Shown: positions 28,622 through 50,209 of the stretch, piece after piece
How the letters are laid out: each line of letters opens with the position of its first letter
How positions within the stretch are numbered: the stretch's first letter is position 1
Source: an uncultured Actinomycetes bacterium
GTDB taxonomy: Bacteria; Actinomycetota; Thermoleophilia; UBA2241
Length of the DNA: 64,000 nt
Assembly: GCA_963845355.1 (NCBI GenBank)
Contig: CAWJRV010000028.1
Coordinates: 1,427-65,426 of the forward strand
Direction of reading: 5' to 3'
Notes under the pieces: generated by a model
Database searches by the model: none
Told to the model about the DNA's origin: nothing
What the model saw: only the letters and a program-made list of their open reading frames with translations
Position numbers and translations under genes: made by a program

Positions 28622-29891
28622 TTACGACGCTCCGTCTACCGGCGCCGACAGGGCCGTTTCGAGGCGCTGCACGGCGTCGTCCTGCATCGACGGCAGGACG
28701 TGCGAGTACGTGTCCAGCGTGATCGCGATGGTCGAGTGCCCCAGCATCTCGCTGACGACCTTGGGATGGACGCCTTGCCCGAGTAGCAGGGTCGCGCAGG
28801 TGTGCCTGAGATCATGGAAGCGGACCTTGTAGTCGGTCTTGCCGATGAGGCTGCGCCAACTGCTCGCAAAGCTCTCCGGGTTCCAGGGGTCGCCCCTCTC
28901 CCCCGCGAACACGAGACCCTGGTCCCGGTAATCCTTCCCCTGAAGCAATCGCATGGCCGCCTGGTCGCTCTTGTGCTTGCGCAGAGCGGCAGCCGGCCGT
29001 CTCGGACAACATGACGACGCGGCGGCCACGCGAGGTCTTGGGCTCCTTGAACAGGGGTGCGCCGTGTATCCATTGGAGCGATTCGACGCAGCTTAGCGTC
29101 CTTGCGTCTATATCTATGTTGCGCCAGCGCAGCGCGAGCAGTTCGCCGCGCCTCATGCCCGTGTGGATCGCCAGCAGGACTGGTAGGTGCATCCTCGTGC
29201 CCTCCGCCTTGGCGAGCAGAGCACGAACCTGTTGGGCGTCAATCGTCTGCATCGGCTTGCGTGCCGGCTTGGGCGGCTGTACAGCGTCACAGACGTTGCG
29301 CACGACGAGGTTCCACTTCACGGCCCGCTTGAGTGCTTCGCTCAGAACTCGGTGATGATGCAGCACGGTCCTTGGCGAGAGGCCGGTCGGTTGGGGCTCG
29401 GCCTTCGCCCGCGAGCGCCGCTTGCCCTTCGGCTTGGCCACCTTCCGCTGGATGCGCCCGGACTTGAGCGCTTTGGCGTAGTAGCTCTGGACGTGCAGGC
29501 TGGTGAGCTTCGGTAGCAGCACTTCGCCCAGAGCTGGCACCAAGTGCAGCCGCACGATCTGCTGGTAGCGCAGTAGGGTCGCGGGCGACAGGTTCGACTC
29601 ACACGACGAAAGCCACTGTTCGAGGTAGTCGCGCACCTTGAGGCGTTGCGGGTCGATGTACGCGCCCGTCGCAATCTCGTTGAGGATGCGGGCGTGGTAG
29701 TTCTCGGCTTCCGTCTGGAGCCCATGGAACGTGTGTCGGCGCCGGATGCGCTTCCCGTCTGCGTCGTAGCCCAAGTCGACCACGAACGTCCAGACCCCCT
29801 TGCCCCTGCTCTTGATCGGCGCCTTCAACGGGACGCCCGTTGCTGGCGCTTCTGAAGAGGCCAGCACACCGAGACTTGGCGCCACCGTCAT
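28622..29891 (-). pseudogene. int: Tyrosine integrase interrupted by one frameshift (~28991-28997)
   Basis: The N-terminal frame reads KSRGKGVWTFVVDLGYDADGKRIRR...HTGMRRGELLALRW...KTSRGRRVVMLSETA. The C-terminal frame continues AAALRKHKSDQ...FHDLRHTCATLLL...LGHSTIAITLDTYSH (catalytic Tyr). The start may be ATG 29891 or TTG 29828. Confidence 0.8.
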
Positions 29892-30702
29892 CGGCTGGGC
29901 AGAAGCGCTGGCGGCCGTCCGTGACGAGGAACGGGGTGCGGCATGTGTCCAGCTCACAAAGCCTCACGAGTCCATGGTCAGCCCAATCGCCGACGTGAAA
30001 CCAGACGGTCTCAACGAGTGTTCTCGTGCTTGTCAGCCAGCGGAGGCGATTCTCGGGCAGGCTGGGGAAGAGAATCGTCTGAAGACTGCGCGTGTTCGAC
30101 GCGACCAGGTCCGCCACTATCTTCATAGCCAAGCCCGGTGCGTCCACATCGGGGTACATCTCGTTTCTGACTTCGAGGCCAAGAGCCAAGGTGAACCCGA
30201 GTGATGCGTTGGACGTGTCGACGAGGGCGGCCGAGCGCCACTCCGTCTGGTAGCGCGCCAAGACGGCTCCGACCTCCTCGGCAGAGTCGCCCTGGAGTGC
30301 CTCTAGCAGTTCCGTCGCGAAGCGAACCGACCTCGCCTGTGCCAGGAACCACGGCAGGGGGTCGCCTCCCGCCAGTCGACCCACCTCGCCCCTTATCGCC
30401 GCCTCCCTGCTCTCGTCGACCTCGGCCCCAGCCTTGAAGTCGGCCCACTCGTCCTCTAGCAGCGTTGGCACCAGCAACTCGCAGTAGCCGAGCAGGCCGT
30501 ACCTGCGGACGAAGTCACATGCAGACCTCTCGTCGACGACCTTCGACAGGGCGTTAGGCAAGTTGGGCACGTCCTGAGGTCGGTAGGCGCGTCGACGTAC
30601 TTCGTCCGGCTCATAGTTGATGACAAGCCCTTTGACGAACGGCTCGTCGCCCGCTCGCCAAGACACGCGGTCAACCTCAACGTGAGACTTTCTTACGCTC
30701 AT
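29599..30702 (-). CDS. Leftward hypothetical protein ending in a Cys4 (CGNR-like) zinc-finger motif
   Basis: MSVRKSHVEVDRVSW...LCELDTCRTPFLVTDGRQRFCPADDGGAKSRC. The last ~100 codons overlap int and look like filler. A shifted frame gives LQKRQQRASR-stop at ~29825. Confidence 0.5.
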   Translation of the reverse strand: MSVRKSHVEVDRVSWRAGDEPFVKGLVINYEPDEVRRRAYRPQDVPNLPNALSKVVDERSACDFVRRYGLLGYCELLVPTLLEDEWADFKAGAEVDESREAAIRGEVGRLAGGDPLPWFLAQARSVRFATELLEALQGDSAEEVGAVLARYQTEWRSAALVDTSNASLGFTLALGLEVRNEMYPDVDAPGLAMKIVADLVASNTRSLQTILFPSLPENRLRWLTSTRTLVETVWFHVGDWADHGLVRLCELDTCRTPFLVTDGRQRFCPADDGGAKSRCAGLFRSASNGRPVEGADQEQGQGGLDVRGRLGLRRRREAHPAPTHVPWAPDGSRELPRPHPQRDCDGRVHRPATPQGARLPRTVAFVV

Positions 30703-30737
30703 GTCTTGCTATTTCTCTACCGTTAGAAGGACCAATG

Positions 30738-30746
30738 TGCTATAAT
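30738..30746 (+). promoter_or_regulatory. Extended -10 promoter TGCTATAAT of the rightward Cro-like gene, followed by an 11-bp palindrome
   Basis: aaTGTGCTATAATgacc, then GACACcGTGTC at 30759-30769. AAGGGGG ribosome-binding site and ATG at 30797. Confidence 0.55.
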
Positions 30747-30796
30747 GACCTATACAAAGACACCGTGTCAAGAGCAAATGCGAACAAGGGGGCACC

Positions 30797-30997
30797 ATGA
30801 AGACACTCAGGATGAAGCGGATTCTACGCGACTGGAGCCAAGCGGAACTCGCTCGGCAGTCGGGACTCAGCCCGAGCACGGTGTGCCAGATCGAGTCCGG
30901 ACGGTTTCGGCCATACCCTTCGCAACTCGCCAAGATCGCTCGGGCACTCGACGCCTCCGACAACCCCGGCGCTCTGCTTGCTGATGTCGAGCGGTAG
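30797..30997 (+). CDS. XRE-family HTH regulator (Cro/CI-like)
   Basis: MKRILRDWSQAELARQSGLSPSTVCQIESGRF. Confidence 0.8.
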   Translation: MKTLRMKRILRDWSQAELARQSGLSPSTVCQIESGRFRPYPSQLAKIARALDASDNPGALLADVER

Positions 30998-31208
30998 CAC
31001 CGAGGCGTGGACCTGGGACGACTTCCCCGAAGTGCTCCAGCCGCGTCACATCATGACCATCCTCGGAGTCTCCGACGCGACGGTCTACGACCTGAACCAC
31101 AACATGCTGAAGGGCGTGGCTCGCAGGGTCGGACGTCAATGGCGCTACCCCAAGTCGGGGGTGCGCCGGCTGCTGGAGGGCGACATCGTCGCTCAAGTCG
31201 AGGGGTGA
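30984..31208 (+). CDS. xis: Excisionase-type HTH DNA-binding protein
   Basis: LQPRHIMTILGVSDATVYDLNHNMLKGVARRVGRQWRYPKSGVRRLL. Confidence 0.7.
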   Translation: MSSGSTEAWTWDDFPEVLQPRHIMTILGVSDATVYDLNHNMLKGVARRVGRQWRYPKSGVRRLLEGDIVAQVEG

Positions 31209-31804
31209 TCGCCCCGACGCCACTCAAAGCGGCCCGCGCTCGTTGTCTCGACTGCGCCGAAACGCGGACCGACGTTAGCAACTGCGGTGACGCGGACTGC
31301 GCCTTGTATCCGTACCGACTGGGCGTAGGCCGAATCACCCTGCGGATCATCCGCCTGCATTGCCTGGAGTGCTGCGACGGTTCCACACACGAGGTGAAGG
31401 AGTGCCCGGCCGTCTCCTGCCCGCTCCGCTCCTACCGTATGGGTCATCGCCCGACATCTGGCAAGCCCGCTACAGAGGTGCAGAAGGATGGCACTCGAAA
31501 AGGCCCGTCTTGCACTCCACGGGGCTCGAGAACTAGACATCCAGCGCGCGGTAGCTCTTTCTGGGGTGACTGCCCTATGAGGGGTGCTTGCGGCGGAATC
31601 GCGTACGCGGGAACGCAGCTCCGCGCGATCGCCTCGGCGTCCGCGTTGGCGGCGGCTGAAAAGCGGAGAAGTCCGCATCCCCAAGGACCCGTACGGCAGG
31701 GTGTTCGTTGTCTCCGCCGGCTTCCTCCGGAGGCGCTTCGGTCGGTGCGTCCTTCACCGCGATTCGCCGCCGTTCACCACCATATGGACAAACTGGCATC
31801 TTGA
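31205..31804 (+). CDS. Cys-rich zinc-finger protein with two tandem CxxC...C...C-P-L-x-x-Y-R-x-G modules; 3' end uncertain
   Basis: GTG overlaps the xis stop. Contains RCLDCAETRTDVSNCGDADCALYPYRLGVG and HCLECCDGSTHEVKECPAVSCPLRSYRMGHRP. The sequence after ~31470 looks like filler, so a frame change is possible. Confidence 0.45.
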   Translation: MIAPTPLKAARARCLDCAETRTDVSNCGDADCALYPYRLGVGRITLRIIRLHCLECCDGSTHEVKECPAVSCPLRSYRMGHRPTSGKPATEVQKDGTRKGPSCTPRGSRTRHPARGSSFWGDCPMRGACGGIAYAGTQLRAIASASALAAAEKRRSPHPQGPVRQGVRCLRRLPPEALRSVRPSPRFAAVHHHMDKLAS

Positions 31805-31852
31805 CATTCTGAGGCTAATTCTGTGCAGAACCCTGGCCAAACTTGGCGAAAT

Positions 31853-31861: not shown

Positions 31862-31914
31862 TGTACTTGAAAGGGAGTAGTGCTTACTCCATCTTGTCCA
31901 AGGGGGGCCTATTC

Positions 31915-32098
31915 ATGACTGAGACCTACCTGTCCGTGCGCGAGACCGCTTCTCGCCTCAGCCTCTGTCCGGAAACCATTACGGCTGGATCAAGCGGGGC
32001 ATCGTTCCAGCCATTCAGACTCGGGCGGGACCTACCGCATCCCCGAGTCGTTCATCCGGGACTACCCCACCGTGCCGATGGCGGCCGTCGAGGCTTAG
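31915..32098 (+). pseudogene. Excisionase/MerR-like HTH gene with two single-nucleotide frame disruptions
   Basis: Three frames read in succession give MTETYLSVRETASRLSLCPETI | YGWIKRGIVPAIQT | GGTYRIPESFIRDYPTVPMAAVEA-stop. The breaks are at attac (31977-79) and cgggcggg (32024-30). Confidence 0.65.
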
Positions 32099-32338
32099 GT
32101 GCGCAGTGAGTCGGTCGCTGCTGATGCAGTGCGGCGCTGGGCTCAACAGCGCGCCGTTCCACTCGGGGCCGTTGACGGCCTGATGCTCATGATGCTTGAG
32201 CAGGGTTACGACGAGTGGCAGGCGATCGCCGCGCTGCGCCTGATGGAGTCGCATGGACTCATCCGCGTCGGCGCCTCTCAGGAAATCGTCATCACGCGCT
32301 ACGGCGAGGCGCAGCTCGCCGCGACCAGAAACCGCTAG
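32099..32338 (+). CDS. Small hypothetical protein
   Basis: GTG follows the preceding stop directly. 79 aa with coding-like composition (LMLMMLEQGYDEWQAIAALRLMESHGLIRV). Confidence 0.5.
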   Translation: MRSESVAADAVRRWAQQRAVPLGAVDGLMLMMLEQGYDEWQAIAALRLMESHGLIRVGASQEIVITRYGEAQLAATRNR

Positions 32339-32483: not shown

Positions 32484-33635
32484 ATGAACGGCGAGGTTCG
32501 TATCCCGAAGGACGAGTTAGACGGAGTCCTGAGCTTGTCGGCCGGCGGCAAGATCACCCCGAAGGAACTCCTTGCCGCCCTCACCATCTGTCGCCTCACC
32601 TACGGCCACAACAACCAAGGGCACACGAGTGTCCGAGCCCAGGCTGTCGCCGATCGCACCGGCATGAGCGTGCGGGGCGCGCAGCGGAGGATCAAATCCC
32701 TCGGCGACAAAGGCGTCCTGAAGACCTGGGGCGCAAACAGCAGGGGCGTGCTCGATGTAGGACTGCACCCCGACGTGTCGATAGCGGGTCAGGCGATGCA
32801 GGCGCGCCTGGCGAAGGAGTACGCCGACAGACAGTCCGGAAAGCCCACCCCGTCACTAGCTAGTGACGCAGTACCCCGTCACCAGCTAGTGACGCACCCC
32901 CCGTCAGTAGCTAGTGACGCACCGATGAAGCATTCCTCTAGAAGCACACCCATTGAAACAGTCCCTAGAGAAGGGGACCTCGCTAACGCTTCGGGGGAAA
33001 CCCCCACTCGGGCGACCGTCGAAGCAAGCCCCTGCGCTCCTTGCCCCCTCGTTAGCCCAGGCACGAAAGACGGCACCGGGGAGGAGGCGGAGCCGCACGT
33101 TACGCCGCCGGCTCCCTATCACCAGAGGGATTCCCTCCTCTCTGACGACACGCTCGCCCGGGCGGTCGGCGCCTTCGACCCGGATGGTCGGGTGTCCGCA
33201 AAGGCGGGAAGGGGAGCGATCCTGCGTCTCTGGGTGCGCGTTCTCGACGAGGCGTGGTGCTCTGGATATCAGCGCGCCTCCGACGAACGTCTCGTCGAAG
33301 TTCTTCTGCCGATCATGGAGCGAGTCGGGGCCGAGAAGGCCAAGTACATCCTCCGCGATGACGTGCGCTATCCGGCCTCCTATCTCGACAGCGTTGGCCG
33401 CGACGAGTTGCTTTTCGAGGAGGACGGCGACCTGCGGGAGCTCAAACAGGCCGAGCGTGAATCTGACCGCGACATCGAACGCACAGCCGTGCCCAATGAG
33501 AACGCTAGGAAGCTGGCGGAGTTGGCACGCCAGACGATGGATCGTATGGCGGAAGAGGGCCGCTCCATCTTCGGGCCGCCCGAAGAGGAGCCGGAGTGGG
33601 AGCGCGGTCTGGGTTACTCGATGGGGATGGCGTGA
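32484..33635 (+). CDS. Replication-organiser-like protein (winged-helix N-terminus resembling phage O/replisome organiser)
   Basis: ITPKELLAALTICRLTYGHNNQGHTSVRAQAVADRTGMSVRGAQRRIKSLGDKGVL. Acidic C-terminus. Iteron-like repeats lie inside the gene. Confidence 0.6.
   Translation: MNGEVRIPKDELDGVLSLSAGGKITPKELLAALTICRLTYGHNNQGHTSVRAQAVADRTGMSVRGAQRRIKSLGDKGVLKTWGANSRGVLDVGLHPDVSIAGQAMQARLAKEYADRQSGKPTPSLASDAVPRHQLVTHPPSVASDAPMKHSSRSTPIETVPREGDLANASGETPTRATVEASPCAPCPLVSPGTKDGTGEEAEPHVTPPAPYHQRDSLLSDDTLARAVGAFDPDGRVSAKAGRGAILRLWVRVLDEAWCSGYQRASDERLVEVLLPIMERVGAEKAKYILRDDVRYPASYLDSVGRDELLFEEDGDLRELKQAERESDRDIERTAVPNENARKLAELARQTMDRMAEEGRSIFGPPEEEPEWERGLGYSMGMA
32851..32921 (+). repeat. Three copies of a 16-bp palindrome GTCACTAGCTAGTGAC (+CGCA): candidate origin iterons
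   Basis: cGTCACTAGCTAGTGACgca (32851-70), cGTCACCAGCTAGTGACgca (32878-96), cGTCAGTAGCTAGTGACgca (32902-21). Spacing is 27 and 24 nt. Confidence 0.7.
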
Positions 33636-33937
33636 TGCTGTTCCTGGAGTCGATCCGCCAGCAGAACGGCTGGCCGCGAGTTCAACTCGCCCTCACGGCA
33701 GCCATGGACTACGAGCGTCTTTGCCACCTTGAGGCCGGCGTCGTGTCGCCAACCACGCAGGAGGCCGAGAAACTCGCTGCCGTGCTGAACTACACGGGCT
33801 CCCCGGCGCAACTCTTCACGCCCGTCGTCACGACTACCACGCCGAGTCGGCCGGCGACCAGGACCGAGGCGCCACGGAAGATTCCGCTCAAGGGCGGTCG
33901 GTTGCCCTGGTCGACTTTGAGGACGCCGAGCGCGTAA
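33635..33937 (+). CDS. XRE-like HTH protein (3' end uncertain)
   Basis: ATG overlaps the rep stop (TGATG). IRQQNGWPRVQLALTAAMDYERLCHLEAGVVSPTTQEAEKLAAVLN. Confidence 0.5.
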   Translation: MLFLESIRQQNGWPRVQLALTAAMDYERLCHLEAGVVSPTTQEAEKLAAVLNYTGSPAQLFTPVVTTTTPSRPATRTEAPRKIPLKGGRLPWSTLRTPSA

Positions 33938-34564
33938 TGGAGCACCTGTGGTACCGGATGAAGGGCAACACCACGGACTATGCCGTCTCGCGGTAGCGTG
34001 CTACTCCACCGGTTCGTTACCGGCGCGCGCGCGGGACGGTCGTCCACCACAAGGACGGCGATGGCCTCAACTGCCGCAGAAGAACCTGCGAGTGCTAGCC
34101 GCGCCGCACACGTCCGTACGACAGGGCCGGCGGCAGGTTCTTCGAGCCAGTACAAGGGCGTGACGAAGAGTGGCAACGAGGGAAGACCGTGGCAGGCCCG
34201 CCTCGGGATCGACCGCAAGCACTACTACCTGGGCCGCTACGCTTCCGAGGTGGAGGCTGCCCGAGCCTACAACGCCGCTCAGGCGAAGTTCGTCGGCTTC
34301 ACATCTGGCGCTTACTTCAACGACATTCCGAAGGGATCGCGCTTCGGCCGCATCGTCCTACCAGAGGCGTCGCTGCTACGGCTCAACAATGCTGCCGCAG
34401 AGTACCGGCTTCGAAGCAAGTCCGAGACATCTTATGGCCACGAGGGGAAAGTCGCGGCTCTATTCGCACGGGGGGTGGCTCATGGGGAGTCAGAAGAACA
34501 GGTTTGCGTCGCCAGCCAGGACGTCCGTCGCCATCAGCCCGGTCGCGACAAGCAGGGGCAGTAG
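33871..34564 (+). pseudogene. HNH endonuclease with AP2 DNA-binding domain, broken by about five frame switches
   Basis: Pieces in different frames: IPLKGGR | VALVDFEDAERVMEHLWYRMKGNTTDYAVSR | GSVLLHRFVTGARAG | TVVHHKDGDGLNCRRR | NLRVL | ...SSSQYKGVTKSGNEGRPWQARLGIDRKHYYLGRYASEVEAARAYNAAQAKFVG (AP2). Confidence 0.65.
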
Positions 34565-34567: not shown

Positions 34568-37500
34568 ATGCCGCTAATCGTCGGCGACCTCAACGGCAAC
34601 CCGACCATCGTTGCGCCCCCGCCGAAGAAGAAGAAAGACGACCAAGGCCCCCTCGGCCCACCCACTTCCCGAGACCAGAGACGGTGGCGTCCCCATCGCC
34701 CGTCGCGCCAGCGGCTCCCGCCGCCACGCCGCCTGCCGAAATCCGCATCGCCAACATCGTGCAGGGCTACCATGCCGCCACCGGCCGCATCCCCGCGGCC
34801 GAGAAGATTCACGACGCACTCTCCATCTCCACCGGCCAGGAGGATGCCTTCTACTGGATGCAGCACTTCGCTCCGCTTGGCAATCCGGTAGTGCCGCTCT
34901 CCATCCGGCAGGCCGCCGCCAAGGGCGACTACCTCTCGCCGGGAAAGTTAGACCCGACCATGCCGCCGGATGTAAAGAGTCTGGTGCCCTACAACCAGCA
35001 GACAGTCACGACGCAGACCCCGCAGGAGTTGCTGTATGGCGGCGAGGCGACAGTCGGCCCGAGCCAACAGTTCTTCGCTGGCGGCCCCAATCCGCAGGAG
35101 CAAAGTGCCAAACAGGGACTCCTGAACGTCGTCCACGCCCTGACGCTGCCGACCTACGCCCAGCAGTATCAGAAGAACGTGGCCGACGCTGCGCTGTCGA
35201 AGTGGCCCGCCCTCAAGCCGCTGGGCCAACTCCTCGCCATCCCCACGTCCACGAACTTGCAAGACGCCATGAACGTCGGCGTGCTGAAGAACTACCTCGA
35301 TTCGCGCGGCTTCAGTGGAGCGCTCACCTCACCGAGCGGTACGCCGCAGTACATCGGGCCGCTGTCTGCTCCGTTCAAGAACACGGCCAAGCTCAACAAC
35401 GCGATCCGCACCTACGTCTTCTACCACGACCTCGCTCCCGCTTTGAGCGGCGACCTCAACGCCGAGACGGAAGCCGGCGCCACGGGGATGCTCCAGTCGG
35501 GCGAGTCCGTCGTCGACTATGTGCGCAACATGCCGGGATCAGACGAGGACCACAAGAATCTCGTCTACCTCTGGTCGTTCACCTCCCGGCCCGCCGACAT
35601 GCCCGCCGGGGCCTTCGCCGAGTGGTATCACGCCAAGTATCCGTCGCTCACTCCCGCCATCGTCCAGCAGCAACTCGCGCAGAAGAACACCAACAACCTG
35701 TCGGACATGAGCGCTATCCCCGACGACGTAAAGCAGGCGTTCTCCTACATCAACGCCAAACTTCCGAGGGACTGGCAGAGCGCCAATAGCGATGTCGGCA
35801 AGGCAGCGAACTCCGTCGTCGGCTTCATGGTGCGCCCACTATCGGATGTCTTGCAGGGCAACATCCGCGAGATCGGACCCGGAGCGCAGGGCAAGGTCGT
35901 CGGCCACATCAAGGTCGACGGCATGGTCCCGGCTCAGTTCGTGGCCCAGACGGTCAACTACGCCCTCAGCGTGCCCGAGCGCCAGATCGCCGCCCAGGTC
36001 TACGCCACTCTCGGCCTGTATCGCATGGCGAACGGCGACGAGAAGCTGAATCAGGTCATCAGCCAAGCGGCCAGCCAGATCACCCAGACCAAGGTGACGC
36101 CGGGCCAGGAGTTCGTCAAGGCAGTCGGCCTCGACCCGGTCAACCAGAACTGGCTCGCCTGGATGGGCGACCAAGCCTCGATGATCGCCGCTGGGTCCGT
36201 TTATGACGCCGCCGGGAAGGCCCTCGTCTCCGGCGCGCTTGACACCGACGCCGCCCGCGCCATCGCCGGGAGCGTCGGCATCAAGACCGACGCTCAGGTC
36301 ATCGCCTCTCTGAACGCTGTCGAGGACCCACAACTGCGTCAGTTCGCCATGCGCCTGCACTACGACGCCTGCTCGCCGAGCGAGTCCGCGCACTGGTCCA
36401 CGCTGGGCACCAACCCCGACGACATCGCGGTAGACCCGCGAGTGTCGGCGGCGACATCCTCGCCCCATTGGCGCGGGCCGTCCTCGCCGAGTCTAGCGTC
36501 CACATGGAAGCTACGGGCCTTCCAAAGCGAAGATGCCCCGGCCTTGCAGCGCGCCTTCCACCTCTCGACCATGGACGCATCGCCGGTCGACCTGACCTCG
36601 ACCAGCCGCGCCGACATCCAGACCTTCCAACATCTGCTACACCACGGCTATGAGGTCAAAGACGCGATGGCCTGGGGCGCCAAGATGACGCAGGCCATGA
36701 TCGACGACGCCAAAGCCGCGACTCCCGCCGAAGGAGAGGCGGCCCCGGCGCGCCAGTTCGCCAATGCCTCGAAGGTCAAGGCCGACCTCGAACAGGAGAT
36801 TGCCGATCACTATCGCTGGGACGAGAAGCCCAGCACCGACAACCCCGCCGGCGTCGTGCGGCAGCCCTCAGCGAAATTCATCCAGGCCATCAAAGACGAC
36901 CCGCTCATCGGACTCAACTGCGAGGACCCCGCGCGCCCCAGCTTCTACGACGAGTACCAGCACTTCGACCAAGCCCTCCAGAAGCACTACTCCACGCGCT
37001 TCGGCCCAAACCGCATGTATGCGCCGACGCTCGACGAGAACGGCCAAGTCATCGAAGGATCGAAGGCCCCTACCCCCACGACGCGCACCAACCAGACCGC
37101 GCGACTGGCCGACATCGACCGCAAGATAACCGCTCTGCGCCGCAGGGCGTCCTTGCAGAGCGAGTTCGACGTCACGGGCGCCACGCCGGAATGGGGAACC
37201 GCGACCAAGCCGAACCCCAAGGGCTACGTGCTGGGTGCGGACCAAACCATGCGCGCCCCGGCCCCGAAAGAGAACCTTCTGGCACAGGCCAACCCCGCGA
37301 CGACAGAGGTGCAGTTCAGCCCCGACGAGTTGCGGGCCGAGCGCGAGGACCTGCTGCTGCGCCAGAAGGAAAACGCCAAGGTCGGCGAGTCGTTCCACAG
37401 CCAGAAGACCGTTGACTCAGACCAGCCTTACACCGACGCCGAGCTCTGGCACCACATCCGAGACTCTGGCGGCATCAAGCCAGACGACGCCTACAAGGAC

Positions 37501-37839
37501 TCGCACGTCACCGGCCGCGAGAACACGGCGGCCTACAAGGGCCTCGCGCGCAAGGGCGGCCAGCCCATCGACGAACTCGCCAGCGACATCGCCGCCAACT
37601 TCCCGCACTTCGGCATCCGCAACGCCGACGACCTGCGCGAGTGGCTCGACAACTACAAGCCGCCGGCCAAGGAAGCGTCGACAGCCGAGCGCGACATCTA
37701 CGGAACCAAGGCGAGCCAAGACCCGCGTATCTGCGGTGCAGAAGGCGCTCTCTGCCGCCCAGAAGGCAGATACTCCCGAGTCCAAGCTCGCCGTCGTCTC
37801 CAGGGCCATCGACAAGATAGACATGACCCATGTGACTGA
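34568..37839 (+). CDS. Giant island protein, segment 1 (no recognisable domain)
   Basis: Sensible sequence in the 34189-37839 ORF from ~34690 (AEIRIANIVQGYHAATGRIPAAEKIHDAL...). The start is either ATG 34568 (MPLIVGDLNGNPTIVAPPPKKKKDD, another frame, tightly following the previous stop) or GTG 34684. Confidence 0.6.
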
Positions 37840-40390: not shown

Positions 40391-40869
40391 AGAACAAGGA
40401 GTATCTGGCGCTCGACGCCAAGACCGCGCTGCCGGCGCTCGTCGCCCAACTCAACAACCGCTTCGGGCACGCCAACCACGACGCCATCGCCTTCTCTCTG
40501 GCCAGCGGGAAAGACCCGTTCGCCGTCACCGACAAGTGGATCACGCCGGAGATTCAGTCCTCGATCAAGGTGCCCAACTGGGTCAACCGTATCAACGTGC
40601 AGACCAGCGGCACGCTGTCGACGGCTTCCTATCACGACATGGTGTCGGCCTTCGAGAACGGCGGCGCGGCGACGCGGGCCGACCTGCGCGCCTCGTCGGT
40701 GTGGCCCGAGTTTCTGGCGCGCTACCGCACAGACCAGGACAACGCCGCCGACAGCGCCATCGGCTACGCCCTCACGGCCGCAACGACCGGGCTGACGCCC
40801 GATCAGCGCACGATGGTAGGGATGCCCCAGGGTCACCCGCAGAGATGGATGTCATCGGGGGCTATCTGA
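40385..40869 (+). CDS. Giant island protein, segment 3 (or separate gene lacking an obvious start)
   Basis: ...AKAMTAKYGKG | LLKNKEYLALDAKTALPALVAQLNNRFGH.... The only in-frame start (GTG 40297) would overlap segment 2 by 94 nt. Confidence 0.45.
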
Positions 40870-41915
40870 ACCGCTCCCAGCAGTGGCACGACCAGCTCGC
40901 CAAACTGCCGTTGTTCTCAAAGGCATGGATCGCGGCCTACTCCGCCGAAAAGCGCGACCTCGCGACGTTCCGCACCGACAACAAGGTGCCGGCGCTCTCG
41001 ATGGATGCCGCCACCCTGCTCTCCCGTCTCGGGCTGGACAAGGAGCGCAACTGGGGCGGCCTCACCCCGCAAGAGCAGAAGATCGCCGACTACTGGAACA
41101 AGCAGACCATCAACGTCAAGATCACCGGCACTACCATCGACATGAACGGCTCGGCCGACCTCAAGCAAGTCCTCAAGATGGGCTCCCAGTTGCAGGGCGA
41201 AGCCAAGCAGCAGTGGCTCGAAAACCTGCGCGCCTTCTGGTGGAAGGGCGTCCTGCAAGTCGGCGAAGCCTGCCGCAAGTCGCTCGCTGCCACCTACGGC
41301 AAGTGGGGCTCGAAGGCCGGCGTCTACACGCCCGCCAACAAGTCCGGGGCCATCCTCGCCTACGCCGCCACCTTCGCCGGTACGCCTTACCTGTGGGGCG
41401 GCAAGACGCCCGCAGCGGGGTTTGACTGCTCGGGATACACGGCCTACGTGTACTCACACTTCGGCATCGACATCGGTAGCGGCACGCAGAACCAACAGCA
41501 CGCCGGGATGCCGGTATCGACCCAGCCGAAGGCGTGGCAGCCGGGCGACCTCATCTTCTACAACACCCACGACGGCCAGCCCTCGCCCTCGCATGTGGCC
41601 ATCTACGCCGGCAACGGCCTCATCTGGCAGGCGCCGCACACCGGAGCGAGCGTCGAGAAGGTCTCGTGGACTGAGCCCGGAACTGATGTCGTCGCGGTGC
41701 GCCGCGTCCTGCTCGGCAAGAGCGGCGGCCCCATTCAGGGCGAGAGTCTGACCTCCAACGACGGCAAGGCGATGCTGGCCAGCTTCGAGACCTTCTGCGG
41801 CCAGCTCGCCCAGCTCGACGTGCGGGTGGGCGGCGGACAGTTCGCCGACGAGTGGAAACGCTACAACACAAAGCACAACATCGCACGCGCCATCATCGAC
41901 CCGAGTAGGTTCTAG
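40845..41915 (+). CDS. NlpC/P60 (C40) cell-wall peptidase domain protein
   Basis: GTPYLWGGKTPAAGFDCSGYTAYVYSHFGI (Cys nucleophile), PSHVAIYAGNGLIWQAPHTG (His residues). ATG 40845 overlaps the preceding frame by 25 nt. Confidence 0.8.
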   Translation: MDVIGGYLNRSQQWHDQLAKLPLFSKAWIAAYSAEKRDLATFRTDNKVPALSMDAATLLSRLGLDKERNWGGLTPQEQKIADYWNKQTINVKITGTTIDMNGSADLKQVLKMGSQLQGEAKQQWLENLRAFWWKGVLQVGEACRKSLAATYGKWGSKAGVYTPANKSGAILAYAATFAGTPYLWGGKTPAAGFDCSGYTAYVYSHFGIDIGSGTQNQQHAGMPVSTQPKAWQPGDLIFYNTHDGQPSPSHVAIYAGNGLIWQAPHTGASVEKVSWTEPGTDVVAVRRVLLGKSGGPIQGESLTSNDGKAMLASFETFCGQLAQLDVRVGGGQFADEWKRYNTKHNIARAIIDPSRF

Positions 41916-41971
41916 TTGAACCGACCACAGAGCATGAACGAGGAGGTCAGCATGACTGAGGAATCCGACTA

Positions 41972-42834
41972 ATGGGCTGGAGCGTATCGACCGGCAAGCC
42001 GCCGGCCAAGAAGAAGCCGCCCAAGACGGGCGCAGCACGTTGAGTGGCACGAGTAGCGGGTCTGGCGCGAAGTCGACCAGCACGGGAGTGAAGTCGTATT
42101 CGTCCACCGTCTACGCCGACTACCTCAAGGAGATCGGCATCAACCCTGGCGCGCAGGGCGCGTGCGGCGGCGATCAAGTGGGCCATTGGAGCGCGGCCGA
42201 CAGCTCGATGTTCCTGCGCTACGTCAAGCAGACAATGCCCGGCCAGCTACCTTAAGACGAGCCTCGGCAAGAGTGACATCCGCAACTTCTTGGGTCAGTG
42301 GCGCTTGTACTCCACGGGCAAGCCATCGAAGGGCGACATGCTGAACTTCACGAGGGGCAACTGGACGGCATGGCAGATGGGCGAGTTCGTCCGTACGACT
42401 CCCTCTGGAAGACCTACCAGGCAGAGGGCATCGGCAACGCCACGCAGCAGTTGCAGGCCAACCCGAGCGAATTCTCGGCCTACGCCCAGCAGTTCGGCAA
42501 CATCCTCAAGAGCTACGGCGTGCGGCCCGACCAGAAGGGCACCTACAACGGTCAGCTCAAGATGGCCTTCGGCGGTCGCATCACGCCGACGACCTAGCCA
42601 ATAACGCGCAGACCTACTTCGGTGGGCGCGAGTCTTACGGCGATTGGACGGGCGCCGCCCCGACGCAGCAGACTGAGCAATCAGGCGCTCTACGGCGGTC
42701 AGGGTTCGGTCGCCGCCCAGTCGCGCATCGTGCAGGCTTTCAACCAGATCAAGAATTTTCAGCAGACTCCCGGGGCGTCCTTCAGCACCGGCACCACGAA
42801 CACCGGAGCCATTCAGCAATCGAGCGTTTTCTAG
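41972..42834 (+). pseudogene. Hypothetical gene fragmented by ~5 frame switches
   Basis: The sense can be followed across frames: MGWSVSTGKPPAKKKPPKTGAA | SGTSSGSGAK...VKQTMPGQ | SYLKTSLGKSDIRNFLGQWRLYS...WQMGEFV | PYDSLWKTYQAEGIG...FGGRIT | DDLANNAQTYFGGRESYGDWTGAAPTQQT | QALYGGQGSVAAQSRIVQAFNQIKNF... Confidence 0.5.
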
Positions 42835-43014: not shown

Positions 43015-43221
43015 ATGACGCATGCACAGACAGAGCGTTTGGCACAAGACATCAGCAAGCATAAGGGCCAGTGGGTTCTCGTTAAGGGAACTCGAGTCGT
43101 TGCTGCTGCGCCAAGCGTCAAAACTGCAATCAACAGCCTCCCCCAGAAAGATCGAAGTAAGGTTCGCGCTCAGTTCTGCCCGAAAGAAGACTACACGGGT
43201 TCGTCTTTTTCCGCGCTCTAG
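43015..43221 (+). CDS. DUF5678-like small protein
   Basis: MTHAQTERLAQDISKHKGQWVLVKGTRVVAAAPSVKTAINSLPQKDRSKVRAQFCPKED. Lies in a lower-GC stretch. Confidence 0.6.
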   Translation: MTHAQTERLAQDISKHKGQWVLVKGTRVVAAAPSVKTAINSLPQKDRSKVRAQFCPKEDYTGSSFSAL

Positions 43222-43585
43222 GTGCGGCTTCCCTCTCTCCGATTCCGACGCCCACCGGCCGCGTGGAAACACGCGTGTCGACGTCGCTTTCCGGGACGAT
43301 CCTGACGGCGTTCCGTACATGGCCCTCGTTGATTCCGGGTCGATACGAACGATCGTGCCAGCATCCGCGCTCGAGGGAATCGACATCGGCGAGCCGCTTG
43401 ACCGCATCGACAGGCTTTGTTTCGCCGTCTGGCAGCTTGACCGCGTTCCGATACATCGCCTCGACATGCGCATCGTCGCGCCGGCGCCGTGGGATGACAT
43501 CGAGCTCCCGGATGTTCCGGTGGCGGTTGCGGATGCCGACTTCCCTTCATCGTCCTTGGGTCCACAGCCCTTACCCACGTGGTAG
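43222..43585 (+). CDS. Retropepsin-like (clan AA) aspartic protease, probably with an early frame disruption
   Basis: PYMALVDSGSIRTIVPASALEGIDIG has the D-S-G active-site context. No in-frame start exists. GTG 43222 follows the upstream stop directly but in the neighbouring frame. Confidence 0.5.
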
Positions 43586-44459: not shown

Positions 44460-46045
44460 CTACAGCTTGGGGAAGCTGCGGGCTGAGATGACGCGGTCGT
44501 ACTTGCCCGAGCCCATGCCGAGCGTGATGGTCCACTCTGACCCCTGAGTGTATGTGGTGACTGTCGTATACCCCGGAGAGTATGTCGTCGAGGAAGATGA
44601 CGAGGTGGAAAACGCCAGCGGGTCACGCGACCTCACACACTGCAGAGTGGTGAGGAAGTCGCGCGTGTAGCTGTTCCAGTCCTTACCGACGCAGTCCCAG
44701 GCGATATAGCTTCCCTCGGCAACCTTGTTGATCGTGGTCCTGCTTTTCGCTCGGACGTAAAACGCCAGGACTGGGGTGTCCGAACCCCCGGCCGGCGTCA
44801 AGATCACCATCGCATCAATCGCCATTGGGTCCTTGATGACAAGTTTCCCCATCCCGTCGCGCATGTGTCTACGCAGAATGTCTCCGTTGGCTAGCCGAAT
44901 TGGCTTGACCACCATGACCGTCGTCGCAGCGTCACCCGCTCGGAGCTTGCAGAGGCCGGGCGACGCCACTGTGACCGTGTAGGTGAGCGGTAGATTCTGC
45001 CCTGGCGCGACCTCGGCAGGACGCGCGCCGGCCTCTTTGCCGTTGGTCTCAATGGTTCCGGGGAAAGTCGGCGAGACGTCTCCGAGGTTCTTGACCGAGG
45101 CGGTCACGATGATGTCTTCGCCTACCGAAAAGACCCCCGACACGGAATGTGGCAGAGCTTCGCCGACCTCTTCGGTTCGAGCGATTGCCTTGAGTCCGCT
45201 GACATGGAATGTGGCCGGGCGAAGTGCGACCGCGGCAATCTCAGTGCCGCCGAGAATCAGCAGATGATGGCCACGCGACGTACCGCTGGGAACGGGAAGG
45301 TCGACAGACCGCGTCTGCCCAGCCGAGAGAGGCAGCTGCATGTCAGCCTGCTTGATGCCATCGAGGGCATAGGAGCCCGTGTAGGTGCCGGCGAACAGGC
45401 CGTCGTTCTTCACCTTGACGGTCAGCGTTGGCGCAGCACCGAGGATCACGCGCTTGTCGCTGGGGACGACAACCCGGTAGTGGGGCATCCACCACAGCAC
45501 GGCCGCAAAGACGATGGAGGCCGCGAGGAGCGACGCGACGGTCGCCGCAAACCGCTTGCGGGATGTCAACTTGGCCAGACCCCACAAGAGCGACGCGACG
45601 AGTACCGCAGCCAGCAGCGTGAACGCAATGCCGACACCGTTGCGGACCGAGGCTCCCCACCCACGGCGAACCAGACTACGATTGCGAAGACTGCAATCGC
45701 AACCACTGCTCGCCAGACCCAACGCCAGCCGCTAAGGCCACCTCCAGACAACGCTGCTGGCGGTGCGACGAGCGACGGAGGGGTCGCAGCGCCAGTGGGC
45801 GCTGGGCCGCCCTGATGTGGGACTGCATGAGCGGGAGGACGGGGCGCGGCTGCTACCTGGATCACCCACTCAAGCAGACCCTCGCGCGCCCAGTCGACCT
45901 GGCCCAGAGCGTCGTAAGTCAGGACGTCCTGGGCCGTGATGGGGCCATGGCCTTGAAGGATGAACTGGTGGCGGGTCTCGTCGTAGGTGATGGTGCTGCC
46001 CGACCAGCTCGTCGTTTGATTGAAGACCGCGACAAGCAAACTCAT
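44460..46045 (-). CDS. Large membrane protein: cytoplasmic N-domain, Pro-rich linker, TM helices, extracellular Ig/CARDB-like repeats; one frame switch (~45645-45665)
   Basis: The 159-aa ORF (MSLLVAVFNQTTSWSGSTITYDE...AIVVWFAVGG) continues in sense into the 420-aa ORF (GASVRNGVGIAFTLLAAVLVASLLWGL...) across a G-run. Confidence 0.55.
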
Positions 46046-46169
46046 GTTGACCCCCCGGTCGACCAGTCGAGTCTACTACGAATCAAAAGCGGCGAAGAAA
46101 CCAGCAAAGAGGATGGTCCAGGCGGCCACAAAAGCCACCGAACCCCAGACCAACGCTGCGGAGCCGAAG

Positions 46170-46907
46170 CTAGACTGTCCGCGCCTCGACGTAGAGGTCG
46201 TTGCGGAGCAGGTAGCGCACGCGACTCTGGATACCAGCGGCCGCCCCGACGCGTCGTCACGCCGGCATCGTTCAAGCGCTGGCAGATGGTCCGCAGGCTA
46301 AGTCCGTCTTGTGACCACTCTTGAACTTGGGCGACCGTCGCCAGTTCGCCCGCATGAGCCTCCAGGAGCCCGTCTGAGCGCGTGTATCCGTACGGCGTTG
46401 GTCCGTAGGCCCGCAGGTGCTTCTTCTTGTGTGCGAGGGCGGCCGTCGTGCGCTCGCTGATCAGCGCGCGCTCGAACTCGGCAAAGCCGGCCAGCATGGT
46501 CAGCATCATGCGTCCGGTGCTGCCGGCCGTGTCGATCGCCGCGCCGCCCATGTCCACCAGGTGCAGCGCCACGCCGGCGGCGTTCCAGCGCTCGGTAAGG
46601 ATCAGGGCGTCGGCAGCGTTGCGGAATAGTCTGTCAAGCTTGTAGGCGACGACGTGCTGGGCCTTGCCGGCCGCGATCAGCTAAGCAGCTCCGCGCCGCC
46701 GGGCCGCGTGTGAAGGTGCTTGTAGGCGCTCACGCCCTCGTCGCGGATCGTCGCTGCGACCTCGAAGCCGCGCATCGTGCAGTAGGCCCTCAGGCGCTCT
46801 TCTTGGGCTTCGAGGGAGACGCCGTGGCGCGCCTGCTCGTCGGTCGAGACGCGCACGTAGAGCACGGCTCTGTCTGTCGCGGTGATCTTCATCGCGCCCC
46901 CCTTCAC
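46170..46907 (-). pseudogene. Serine recombinase (resolvase domain + start of recombinase domain), two frame switches and truncated
   Basis: MKITATDRAVLYVRVSTDEQ (catalytic Ser) ...GAELL | LIAAGKAQHVVAYKLDRLFRN...GRMMLTMLAGFAEFERALISERT...GGRWYP | SRVRYLLRNDLYVEARTV-stop. No zinc-ribbon or coiled-coil part follows. Confidence 0.7.
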
Positions 46908-47353
46908 AGCACACTCTTGAGGTAGTCATCTAGCACCGATTGCAGGATGAGGCGCTGCTTGCCGGTCGCGTTGCGCAGACAGCGAAGTGTGCCGTCGTCG
47001 CACCAGCGCCGCACGGTCATCGGGCTGACCTCGTAACCTCGCTCGGTGAGATAGGCGGCGGCTTCTGCCGTCCTGAGCGTCTGCTCGTTCGGTGACGAGA
47101 CCCGACTTCTGGACCTCGCCCAGAACTCCTCAAGCGCGCTCACGGGGATGCGCCGATGCTTGTACCCGATGGCGCCGCGCTCCTCGCGGACCCGCTGCAA
47201 GACCTCGGGCGGTGGCACGCAACGCAGCTTGCCTTCCTCGCAGAGCGTCTGGATGGTGCGCAGGTTGATGTCCTTGAGGCCGCGCTCCCTGAGGATCTGA
47301 AGCGCCTCAGTGGTCGTGTAGGGTTTCCTGCTGTTCGGCTTCCTGGCCGCCAC
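46904..47353 (-). CDS. Double excisionase-type HTH protein (possible recombination directionality factor or regulator)
   Basis: Two HTH modules: YTTTEALQILRERGLKDINLRTIQTLCEEGKLRCV and LRTAEAAAYLTERGYEVSPMTVRRWCDDGTLRCL. Its stop overlaps the recombinase GTG as GTGA. Confidence 0.7.
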   Translation of the reverse strand: MAARKPNSRKPYTTTEALQILRERGLKDINLRTIQTLCEEGKLRCVPPPEVLQRVREERGAIGYKHRRIPVSALEEFWARSRSRVSSPNEQTLRTAEAAAYLTERGYEVSPMTVRRWCDDGTLRCLRNATGKQRLILQSVLDDYLKSVL

Positions 47354-47378
47354 GCCCGCACCCCTTCGGTCGGTCTCT

Positions 47379-47840: not shown

Positions 47841-48176
47841 CTAGCGCTCGCGACTTCGTCTAGCCTCGGTGTAGTCGCAGATGGTCGGATCGGAGAAGAT
47901 GATCGCGGCCTGGTCGCGCTGCTCGGCGATGTACTTGTCGAGCCAGTCGCCCGGGCGCTGTGCTTCGTGCTCGAGCTCGTGCGCCGCCTCGTGCAGTGCG
48001 GCCGGGGCCACCCGCTCGTCGTGCGTGACTGTTGGTCCCTCGAAGTCGATGAACCACTCGCCCGTGCGCTTGTAGACGACGATCAATTCCTCGACTCCGA
48101 AGCAGTCATCAGTGAAGTCGCCGATCTTGTCGAGTAGACGCTGCTTGCGACGGTCTGTCTGTGCGGTGGTGCCCAT
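47841..48176 (-). CDS. Hypothetical acidic protein
   Basis: Intact 111-aa ORF with coding-like composition (LIVVYKRTGEWFIDFEGPTVTHDERV...). No family recognised. Confidence 0.5.
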   Translation of the reverse strand: MGTTAQTDRRKQRLLDKIGDFTDDCFGVEELIVVYKRTGEWFIDFEGPTVTHDERVAPAALHEAAHELEHEAQRPGDWLDKYIAEQRDQAAIIFSDPTICDYTEARRSRER

Positions 48177-48964: not shown

Positions 48965-49132
48965 TCACGGAGGCGGGATTCGGGAAGTGTGCAGGAGCGT
49001 GGCGCCCCAAGCGAGCCAGCCGGCGGCGAGGAAGGCTTGCGGGAAGCTGCGATCCACGATGCCCCCACAGACGAAGAGGACGCCCAGGATGCAGACGATG
49101 ATGCCGCCGAAATAGAATCCCTCGCGCTGCAT
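48965..49132 (-). CDS. 55-aa two-TM peptide
   Basis: MQREGFYFGGIIVCILGVLFVCGGIVDRSFPQAFLAAGWLAWGATLLHTSRIPPP. Below the ORF-track length cutoff. Confidence 0.4.
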   Translation of the reverse strand: MQREGFYFGGIIVCILGVLFVCGGIVDRSFPQAFLAAGWLAWGATLLHTSRIPPP

Positions 49133-49162
49133 CTCAGCTCATGCGGCGATAGCCGAGGTAGC

Positions 49163-49345
49163 TCAGAATCCACCTAGCAAGAACAGCACCAGGGCGATGG
49201 CGTCGGGATAGTAGAGCGCGTCGGGGCCGAGGGGATGGTTCAGCACGGCGTCGGCGATGACCACCACGCCCCAGAGCGCGATCAGCACGCCCACCGCGAA
49301 CAGCACCTTGCCCCTCATCTCGACCCCCTCATTCTCCATCGCCAT
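49163..49345 (-). CDS. 60-aa two-TM peptide
   Basis: MAMENEGVEMRGKVLFAVGVLIALWGVVVIADAVLNHPLGPDALYYPDAIALVLFLLGGF. Its ATG abuts the methyltransferase stop (TGA-ATG). Confidence 0.5.
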   Translation of the reverse strand: MAMENEGVEMRGKVLFAVGVLIALWGVVVIADAVLNHPLGPDALYYPDAIALVLFLLGGF

Positions 49346-49996
49346 TCACTTCGCGATGACAAAGTAGATCGTCGTGCGCCGAGGGTGGTGCGTCGTGAAC
49401 ACCGTCGCATCCGGCCCAAGGAAGTCGCACAAGCGATCGGTGCTCTCGAACTCGTTGTCGTGCTCCCGATTGCCCTTCCCCCTAGCTTCGGGCGCCACCT
49501 GCGGCGTCGACCCGACGATGTGACCACCCTCTGCGAGTGCGTCCCGCAAACGTGCCATCACCGCCCGCCCGTCCACTGCCGAAAGGTGCTCGATGGCCTC
49601 GAAGAAGCAAATGAGGTCGTACCCGGAGCCAGGCAGGGGTTTCCTGATGTCGGCGCAAGTGAAGGCAATGTTGCTGCGGGAGTGCCGTCGGCGAGCGACC
49701 GCAAGCGCTGCGGGATCACGGTCGAGAGCGTCGATGCTGCCGGCCGTGTCGGCCCAGAAGATATCGCTGAAGTAGCCATCGCCGCAGCAGACGTCGAGGA
49801 CCCTTCCACCCCCGGGAAGGTACAGAGCGAGCCAAGACGCCGCGCTCAATCCAGAAGAGGTTGCGGGGCCATAGCAGCTCGTCGATGCGATGGTCGTACC
49901 AAGTGTGCCTGCCGGCCCTCCACTGTTGTAGCAGGCGCTTCCCGGCGTGGCTGCGCACGACCGTTGCGAACTCGTAGATCTCGACTCCCCCCTCAA
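49346..49996 (-). CDS. Class I SAM-dependent methyltransferase with one frame switch (~49835-49845)
   Basis: GGRVLDVCCGDGYFS (motif I) and YDLICFFEAIEHL. The N-terminal sense (TWYDHRIDELLWPRNLFWIERGV) lies in the adjacent frame. Confidence 0.6.
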   Translation of the reverse strand: MRGESRSTSSQRSCAATPGSACYNSGGPAGTLGTTIASTSCYGPATSSGLSAASWLALYLPGGGRVLDVCCGDGYFSDIFWADTAGSIDALDRDPAALAVARRRHSRSNIAFTCADIRKPLPGSGYDLICFFEAIEHLSAVDGRAVMARLRDALAEGGHIVGSTPQVAPEARGKGNREHDNEFESTDRLCDFLGPDATVFTTHHPRRTTIYFVIAK

Positions 49997-50067
49997 AACC
50001 CCTCAGAGCATACGACCGCTACCGGACGGCAGCAATAGGCGCGTTACGTCGTCTGGCCGCCGCACGG

Positions 50068-50096
50068 TTGGTGGCATTTTGGTGACATGGTGACTT
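50068..50096 (+). promoter_or_regulatory. Three TGGTG(A/G)C(A/T)T repeats; candidate integrase arm-type sites (P arm)
   Basis: tTGGTGGCATttTGGTGACATGGTGACTTcgg lies ~115 nt inside attR, in the same orientation as the left-end copies. Confidence 0.4.
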
Positions 50097-50209
50097 CGGC
50101 TGCCCTCCTGTGGTCGTTTCCGGTTCCTTGGCCAGCGACCTGCTCGTATGCAGGAATTCTTGTCTTCGGTTCGGTTGGCTTCTGGAACCTTGCGGAAGCC
50201 TATGACGAA

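Follow-up and report, generated by a model that had tools for sequence, protein, structure and literature searches.

The question raised by this locus is what kind of mobile element is integrated behind the tRNA-Ser(TGA) gene in contig CAWJRV010000028.1 of an uncultured actinobacterium. A stretch of 64 kb, here called the window, was analyzed, and all positions refer to it. The element, here called the island, holds an integrase, regulators and a replication gene at its left side, followed by one giant gene and a series of smaller ones. From its motifs, the initial annotation had concluded that the island fits neither a tailed prophage nor an integrative and conjugative element (ICE) or its actinomycete counterpart (AICE), and had proposed a satellite, an integrative plasmid, a non-tailed virus or a deleted remnant. 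As it stands, the island is indeed not a complete tailed prophage or an AICE/ICE, but its ancestry is probably that of a tailed phage. Very probably, a temperate, podovirus-like tailed prophage decayed here in a Thermoleophilia-like actinobacterium, and the island is what deletions have left of it.

The giant gene and its neighbor are homologous to head genes of tailed phages

The G+C content per codon position indicated unbroken coding on the plus strand from ∼34678 to 41915, with a strong signal (G+C at third codon positions, GC3, of 0.8–0.9) that moves straight from one frame into the next. Three frameshifts were located, at ∼37700–37760, ∼40388 and ∼40830–40845, and neither a start codon nor a ribosome-binding site that would convincingly begin a new gene could be observed at the second and third junctions. 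When the second piece of the giant gene was used in a phmmer search against 1.84 billion cluster representatives, 20 homologs were identified (best E-value 3e-52, 27–31% identity). All of them are single proteins of 1,288–4,375 amino acids (aa), and 19 of the 20 have at least 2,096 aa. Pieces p1, p2 and p4 from the window align in the same order to the N-terminal, central and C-terminal regions of single homologs, two of which (P0011 and P0014) likewise end in an NlpC/P60 domain. Therefore, the giant gene and the C40 peptidase, which had been annotated as a gene of its own, are read as one ancestral open reading frame (ORF) of ∼2,411 codons with three frameshifts, in which the peptidase is the C-terminal domain.

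The context of the homologs was examined in eight contigs carrying six giant homologs and in three IMG/VR viral-genome loci of 42–51 kb. These related loci, L081–L093, are 40–51-kb contigs or IMG/VR uncultivated viral genomes (UViGs) and include UViG_3300025764_000005, UViG_3300022555_000113 and UViG_3300025864_000004. Wherever the flank suffices, the same gene order was found: a small-terminase-like gene (TerS-like, ∼215 aa), the large terminase (TerL, matching phrog_38 at 1.7e-29), the portal (670–780 aa, with a weak SPP1_portal match in L091/L092), a small gene (98–140 aa), the giant gene, a gene here called X (311–704 aa, or split into 246 + 265 aa), a scaffold-like gene (177–198 aa), the major capsid protein (∼405 aa; PF17236 SU10_MCP; phrog_1328, 5e-32), SU10_adaptor and beta-helix fibers. 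In the related phage contigs examined no tape-measure or tail-tube genes were seen, which suggests that these phages are short-tailed. L088–L090 encode a tyrosine integrase whose domains (Phage_int_SAM_3 and Phage_integrase) are arranged as in the integrase of the window, and temperate members therefore exist. The G+C content of the related phages (59–64%) is near that of the island.

In the island, the giant gene is immediately followed by a match to X, which is spread over five collinear pieces (frames 1, 2, 1, 0 and 1) with their four junctions in 42000–42700. This gene had been described as fragmented and of unknown nature; it is fragmented, but it can now be assigned as an X homolog. Giant and X are adjacent in L081, L082, L084, L088, L091 and L093, as they are in the island. 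The giant gene of the island thus shares collinear homology and the X neighbor with the family P0003–P0022, and the portal-side context is deleted in the window. Judged by this homology and gene order, giant and X are of phage ancestry, being homologs of two adjacent head-module genes in tailed phages with TerL, portal and an SU10/HK97-type capsid.

In the exhaustive search of cluster representatives, no relative closer than ∼31% identity to the giant was found. Giant parts 1 and 2 were also run in a word-indexed search against 5.8 billion proteins, which returned only the window's own proteins or nothing, and neither the single sequence nor alignment A1 of the giant matched any of 185,579 species genomes. 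In tblastn against GenBank phages and PLSDB plasmids, the giant parts and a 2.9-kaa concatenate of the other island proteins gave only domain matches, to NlpC/P60, AP2 and zinc-ribbon domains. A sequence search of the PDB with the giant parts gave no match, and Pfam at E-values up to 5 gave only noise. The conserved C-terminal half was modeled with AlphaFold2 (AF2) from a 10-sequence alignment; the model is mostly helical with a predicted local distance difference test score (pLDDT) of 60.6, and Foldseek found no match at E ≤ 0.001 in the PDB or BFVD.

Some further features of the family were observed. A module of ∼100 aa at the end of giant piece 1 of the window (residues 907–1002, ∼37396–37683) corresponds to residues 1347–1447 of P0006. 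There it is located elsewhere, within the region matching piece 2, which points to domain shuffling within the giant family. The extremes of length are P0017 with 1,288 aa and P0022 with 4,375 aa, the latter about as long as the giants of Microbacterium EK phages; for the C-terminal 1,076 residues of P0022 no tblastn match was obtained in GenBank phages. The TerL of one related phage (L091:2697-6416) comprises 1,239 aa and has intein signatures (Hint_2, LAGLIDADG_3 and Intein_splicing), and an HNH_3-AP2 homing-endonuclease gene adjoins it on the opposite strand.

Packaging, capsid and transfer genes are missing

When candidate ORFs of the island were scanned against four profile collections (Pfam, PHROGs, NCBIfam and PADLOC), none of them matched a terminase, portal, capsid, tail, FtsK/TraB, relaxase, VirB4 or type IV coupling protein (T4CP). 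Hidden Markov models (HMMs) of the relatives' TerS, TerL, portal, small-gene, scaffold-like and capsid proteins did not match in the six frames of the 64-kb window either (best E > 0.1). Their TerL HMM reached a best E-value of 1.4, with no Pfam or PHROG match for a large terminase; the portal HMM, from five relatives, reached 0.39 on an antisense segment; and the SU10-type HMM for an HK97-fold capsid reached 3.6, with no Pfam or PHROG capsid match. Since the HMMs of the other module genes find nothing in the window, the virion module is reduced to giant and X.

Searches aimed at other types of elements were also negative. No FtsK/SpoIIIE-like TraB was matched by Pfam among ORFs of ≥350 aa, and the profile scans of the island gave no Nudix or Spd-like matches. 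In six frames of the island the sole Walker A match lies in a spurious antisense segment of 73 aa, and no real ORF contains the motif expected of an A32/FtsK-like packaging ATPase. A jelly-roll capsid had no sequence match among the island ORFs; the one beta-rich candidate (44460–45722) was modeled by AF2 as a single sequence, which gave an unusable model (pLDDT 36). For satellite packaging-hijack genes (small terminase, capsid remodeling, helper interference) no profile matches were obtained. Comparison of all ORFs with seven further loci added only integrase and AP2 matches. The absence of standard packaging, capsid, tail and conjugation genes, which had been noted from motifs, is thus borne out by profile scans, relatives' HMMs and the Walker A search, and the capsid and terminase genes are gone rather than hidden among the hypothetical ORFs.

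Disrupted genes are confined to the island among the genes compared

At least five island genes, namely the integrase, HNH-AP2, giant, X and serine recombinase genes, are disrupted by frameshifts or stops, and in HNH-AP2 and X several lesions fall within a few hundred bases. For the integrase, tblastn with an intact 432-aa homolog from another metagenome-assembled genome (MAG; L010) gave two high-scoring segment pairs on the window, in frames -3 and -1, with 42% and 56% identity. The gene had been annotated as an integrase, and a tyrosine integrase it is, but it is not intact: a frameshift near 28990 leaves the arm-binding, SAM-like and N-terminal catalytic parts in one frame and the HxxR...Y C-terminal part in the other, and, by comparison with the L010 homolog, separates the first catalytic Arg from the HxxR...Y motif. 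In a three-frame comparison with the intact HNH_3-AP2 gene of L091, the HNH part of the island's pseudogene is in frame 1 with two stops and the AP2 part in frame 2, with the indels located in 33901–34180. The intact homolog sits between TerL and portal in L091.

As a control, host genes were compared over ∼16–28.5 kb and parts of 51–59 kb. All 64 ORF queries from close relatives, and further right-flank queries, align in a single frame each; the lesions are therefore a feature of the island only. Two host genes seemed to be split relative to L004, but this was an artefact that could be traced to off-frame ORFs among the queries. Sequencing error was considered as a cause and judged unlikely: the giant junctions examined are not in long homopolymers, the integrase junction is not within a homopolymer, and comparable host genes are intact. 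An assembly error is also an unlikely explanation of the five broken genes.

Boundaries, insertion site and host

The island lies between direct repeats of the 3′ end of tRNA-Ser(TGA), of 60 and 61 nucleotides (nt), which form the attachment (att) sites (Table 1). These repeats therefore define an element of 21.76 kb at 28514–50270. The sole difference of attR from attL is an extra G in a G run (GTGGGG versus GTGGG), the copy within the tRNA being the shorter one. Blastn revealed no third att copy inside the island that would mark a tandem element. The G+C content of the island is 61–66% and uniform along its length, compared to ∼68–73% in the flanks. The distance between tRNA-Ser(TGA) and tRNA-Ser(GCT) is 31 kb in the window versus 6–8.7 kb in host relatives with enough flank, which indicates that the site is empty in these relatives.

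A survey of the tRNA-Ser(TGA) gene, as had been proposed, showed that other MAGs hold different small insertions there with related integrases, and the gene is therefore a recurrent integration site. At L064:11857-14864 an islet of ∼3 kb has tRNA-end repeats on both sides and contains an integrase fragment only. The intact integrase of L010 (L010:11415-12713) adjoins tRNA-Ser(TGA) and has 42–56% identity to the window integrase. In L001 the contig stops exactly at tRNA-Ser(TGA) (L001:12416-12506), which looks like an assembly break. Downstream of the island, five tRNA genes (Ser-GCT, Arg-ACG, Ser-GGA, Ser-CGA and Val-CAC) are located at 59574–63232 of the window, and a portion of the att sequence is shared by the Ser-GGA and Ser-CGA genes (97% identity over 31 nt; 83% over 65 nt).

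Immediately upstream of the insertion site lies a seryl-tRNA synthetase gene (26011–27270), which has 95% identity to the copy in an uncultured actinobacterial MAG and 73–87% identity to those of several ‘Thermoleophilia’ MAGs. The nearest relatives of the host are MFD and palsa/bog MAGs. The host is a Thermoleophilia-like actinobacterium.

Left arm and right part of the island

The left arm, with the integrase, regulators, an xis-like gene and an O-like replication initiator (Rep) with iterons inside its gene, is a lysogeny and replication module. The layout that had been described for this third of the island (int, leftward regulator, Cro-like gene, xis, rep with internal origin) is in agreement with the profiles and the iterons for int, the HTH genes and rep, xis being assigned by eye only and the leftward ORF matching no family. 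An O-like Rep with iterons inside the gene is a classic arrangement of temperate phages, as in lambda O/ori. Here, the three iteron matches compare with none expected by chance. The profile matches of Rep (Phage_rep_O/HTH_24, phrog_678, phrog_391 and TIGR01610) are all under the curated cut-offs; the protein is not of the RepSA, RepAM or prim-pol type and has just a weak similarity to the phage-O-like winged helix-turn-helix (HTH). No Rep homologs were found in the word-indexed search of 5.8 billion proteins, the 185,579 species genomes or a scan of IMG/VR. The leftward ORF beside the integrase gave no Pfam, PHROG, NCBIfam or PADLOC match. The small Cys-rich ORF matches a hypothetical protein encoded on a plasmid of the gammaproteobacterium Agarilytica rhodophyticola (41% identity, 84 aa aligned), the only plasmid match of the island besides the AP2 domain in tblastn against PLSDB.

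In the right part, Pfam supports the serine recombinase remnant and the methyltransferase that had been recognized from motifs. A proposed DUF5678-like/aspartic-protease pair found no profile support, and just a D-S-G motif could be seen in the translation. Of the proposed membrane/Ig-like protein the membrane anchor holds, and the Ig-like label comes from a weak CARDB match under the Pfam cut-off. A further small ORF is located at 47841–48176. The methyltransferase matches PADLOC mad2, of the MADS defense system, at an E-value of 1.1e-15 within the methyltransferase domain only (∼120 of 492 profile positions); no other MADS components were identified near it, PADLOC giving only this mad2 domain match.

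Table 1. Features of the island and its attachment sites, with positions in the window
Feature	Position	Strand or remark	Basis
tRNA-Ser(TGA)	28422-28513	+	ARAGORN; its last 60 nt (28454-28513) are attL
Tyrosine integrase pseudogene	28622-29957	-	Pfam Phage_int_SAM_3 and Phage_integrase on two ORFs
Leftward 366-aa ORF, function not assigned by any family	29599-30702	-	Clear coding signal at ∼29900-30600 (GC3 frame plot); Cys-rich C-terminus
Small divergent HTH_17 (MerR/excisionase-type) regulator, Cro-like by position	30978-31208	+	Pfam HTH_17, 8.4e-07
Small Cys-rich (zinc-ribbon-like) ORF	31200-31480 (approximate)	+	Translation
Excisionase-like ORF (MTETYLSVRETA...)	31915-32109	+	By eye from the translation; no profile test passed
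Candidate replication initiator (Rep) with phage-O-like N-terminal winged helix	32466-33635	+	Weak Pfam Phage_rep_O/HTH_24, phrog_678, phrog_391, TIGR01610
Three iterons of 25-26 bp in tandem (CCCCGTCAnnAGCTAGTGACGCA), with a palindrome inside each; putative origin	32848-32921	Inside rep	Repeat search
HTH_3 (Xre-type) regulator	33596-33937	+	Pfam HTH_3, 2.2e-4, slightly under cut-off
HNH-AP2 homing-endonuclease pseudogene	33901-34564	+	phrog_99, phrog_374 (HNH endonuclease); AP2 tblastn matches
Giant virion-module gene, ∼2,411 codons, four frames	34678-41915	+	Frame plot, junction translations, collinear homologs
NlpC/P60 (C40) peptidoglycan endopeptidase domain, C-terminal end of the giant gene	41379-41666	+	Pfam PF00877, 1.6e-21; phrog_329 minor tail protein, 1.8e-28
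Pseudogene of X	41956-42834	+	phmmer with the X proteins of L081 and L082; HMM built from six members of the X family; tblastx collinearity
ORF with D-S-G motif, weak coding signal, no family match	43022-43585	+	Translation, frame plot
Membrane-anchored protein, function not assigned	44460-45722	-	Weak Pfam CARDB (Ig-like), 1.3e-3, under cut-off; N-terminal hydrophobic helices
Large serine recombinase remnant, two fragments, C-terminus truncated	46042-46907	-	Pfam: Resolvase 1-56 on one ORF; Resolvase 98-141 and Recombinase 5-43 on another
Excisionase-family/HTH_17 DNA-binding protein, upstream of the serine recombinase	46904-47353	-	Pfam HTH_17, 9.6e-13; TIGR01764, 4.6e-10
Class-I S-adenosylmethionine-dependent methyltransferase (cargo)	49346-49996	-	Pfam Methyltransf_25, _23, _11; generic NCBIfam methyltransferase matches
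attR	50210-50270	61-nt copy of the tRNA 3′ end with one extra G	Direct-repeat search and blastn

Origin of the island

The island combines the features by which defective prophages are recognized: site-specific integration, homology and synteny of virion genes, and loss or inactivation of essential genes. In the proposed course of events, the parent phage would have integrated at tRNA-Ser(TGA) by recombination through its tyrosine integrase. Deletions would then have removed the packaging genes that preceded the giant gene, from TerS through portal, as well as all that followed X. The left arm may once have been part of the same phage as giant and X, and the right third, with the membrane protein, the serine recombinase remnant and the methyltransferase, may be cargo or debris of a second insertion. 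In its present state, the island would be unable to excise, package or transfer by itself.

Several observations weigh against this origin. Rep, the 366-aa leftward ORF and the small regulators have no detectable relatives in the collections searched. With those parts of the related phages that were retrieved, the left module has only the integrase family in common; that the left arm and giant-X come from one source is therefore inferred, not shown. The nearest homologs of the giant are just 27–31% identical and none is found in the bacterial genomes of the 185,579-species collection, nor is there an intact prophage of exactly this lineage for comparison. Virion association of the giant is deduced from gene position and the peptidase domain only, with a structure model at pLDDT 60 and empty fold searches. 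Finally, consensus errors are in principle a possible source of frameshifts in a contig from a MAG.

If the frameshifts were such consensus errors, or very recent, the island could be a helper-dependent satellite like the phage-inducible chromosomal islands (PICIs), in which giant and X, derived from a helper, were added to an int/regulator/rep-ori core and re-equip helper capsids. The left third is in PICI-like order (int, divergent regulators, xis, rep with internal origin), packaging and capsid genes are all missing, the att repeats are close to perfect and the giant gene retains its strong codon-position signal with a GC3 of 0.8–0.9. Nevertheless, this origin is distinctly unlikely: at least five genes are disrupted while the compared host genes are intact, excision would fail with a split integrase, and neither a small terminase nor a capsid-size redirection gene or another known satellite hallmark is present. 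Moreover, a second copy of the architecture was not found in any collection searched, and typical PICIs are smaller than the 21.8 kb of the island. That the element is still alive, as a satellite of an uncultured giant-protein podophage lineage which loads its own giant ejection protein and X into helper capsids, with the frameshifts as assembly consensus errors, is very unlikely.

An origin that does not involve a single phage was weighed as well. The island could be a composite, in which an integrative plasmid-like replicon (int-xis-rep-ori) was fused with unrelated phage debris (giant-X) and a serine recombinase element. This would explain that the left arm and the right third share only the integrase family with the giant-bearing phages, that a second recombinase system (serine recombinase and excisionase-family HTH) is encoded on the opposite strand, and that in L088, unlike in the island, the integrase adjoins TerS without a rep module in between. 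It is improbable, given the single att pair without an internal copy, the even G+C content of 61–66% across the island and an O-like Rep with in-gene iterons that is itself classic for temperate phages; moreover, it differs from a decayed prophage in history only, since the present state would be the same defective remnant with tailed-phage genes. A non-tailed virus, with a jelly-roll capsid or a membrane, or an ICE/AICE with unrecognizable transfer genes could be imagined from the lack of recognizable tailed-phage structural genes in the island itself and from its many ORFs without family assignment. Judged by sequence, such an element is extremely improbable: no P-loop ATPase (A32-like, FtsK/TraB, VirB4 or T4CP) is encoded, relaxase, Nudix and Spd-like matches were not found, and the one large gene is a member of a family whose genes lie within the HK97/SU10-type capsid modules of tailed phages. 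Among the four explanations first proposed, the deleted remnant is thus retained, and the satellite, the integrative plasmid and the non-tailed virus are set aside, given the homology of giant and X to tailed-phage head genes and the at least five pseudogenes.

Implications

The island is thus very probably a cryptic prophage of the ordinary sort rather than a new class of mobile element. The main value of the analysis is this correction: an island that was read from motifs as neither phage nor ICE becomes an ordinary decayed prophage after exhaustive profile search and examination of homolog context, which guards against over-calling new classes of mobile elements in poorly sampled lineages. 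In addition, it draws attention to an uncharacterized family of giant proteins (2,100–4,400 aa), encoded after the portal in podovirus-like phages with SU10-type capsids, some of which end in a cell-wall peptidase. By analogy, these proteins are probably packaged and act in ejection or as pilot proteins, and in kind they can be compared with the Microbacterium EK giants, which are unexplained as well. The giant protein of the parent phage would have been packaged in the capsid and ejected with the DNA, and its C-terminal peptidase would have cut the cell wall. The island is the first host anchor, in Thermoleophilia-like Actinomycetota, for a phage clade with portal-adjacent proteins of 2,100–4,400 aa that was known from metagenomes only, and at least some members of this phage group are temperate.

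Comparison with known systems

In the actinobacterial podoviruses of Microbacterium cluster EK and in Burro (gp27), one gene of >13 kb lies adjacent to the portal gene and encodes a highly divergent protein of >4,400 aa with few recognizable domains (PMC7302621; PMC8281081). This giant is virion-associated, and a band of ∼250 kDa was found in Burro virions, so that a packaged or ejected role is likely (PMC7302621; PMC8281081). As in these phages, a large share of the genome is devoted to one gene, with 7.2 kb in the island compared to >13 kb. In contrast, tblastn against GenBank phages showed no similarity between the two, the EK proteins are about twice as long, and EK phages are lytic and have no integrase.

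The T7 protein gp16 contains a cell-wall hydrolase domain, and the NlpC/P60 end of the giant parallels it, as an analogy and not as membership. Internal or ejection proteins of short-tailed phages (T7 gp14-16, P22 gp7/16/20) have their genes in the head module, are packaged into the capsid and are needed for genome delivery (PMC8954989). Unlike these, the giant is one polypeptide and not three, and it has no sequence similarity or confident structural similarity to them.

PICIs and AICEs resemble the island in the arrangement of the left third (int, xis, regulators, rep/ori). In contrast to them, the island lacks satellite packaging genes as well as TraB/FtsK, Spd, Nudix and Kor, is pseudogenized and has tailed-phage virion genes. 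With the phages of L081–L093 it has in common a giant gene that is homologous over the N-terminal, middle and C-terminal parts, the NlpC/P60 end (as in P0011 and P0014) and X as the next gene; in some of these phages a tyrosine integrase with the same domains is encoded, and in one an HNH-AP2 gene is located close by. Unlike in these phages, where the giant gene is intact, it is broken in the island, and the TerS, TerL, portal, scaffold-like, capsid, adaptor and fiber genes are missing.

Cryptic or defective prophages at tRNA genes are well known, for example e14, Rac, DLP12 and CP4-57 of E. coli K-12. The island differs from the E. coli cryptic prophages in its uncultured Thermoleophilia-like host, in that nearly all of its genes are ORFans, and in a parent phage lineage that is represented in metagenomes only. 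As in the E. coli prophages, the att repeats are derived from the target, the integrase gene lies beside attL and the lysogeny/replication arm is kept, while few virion genes are left, packaging and capsid genes are lost, and pseudogenes stand next to cargo such as a methyltransferase.

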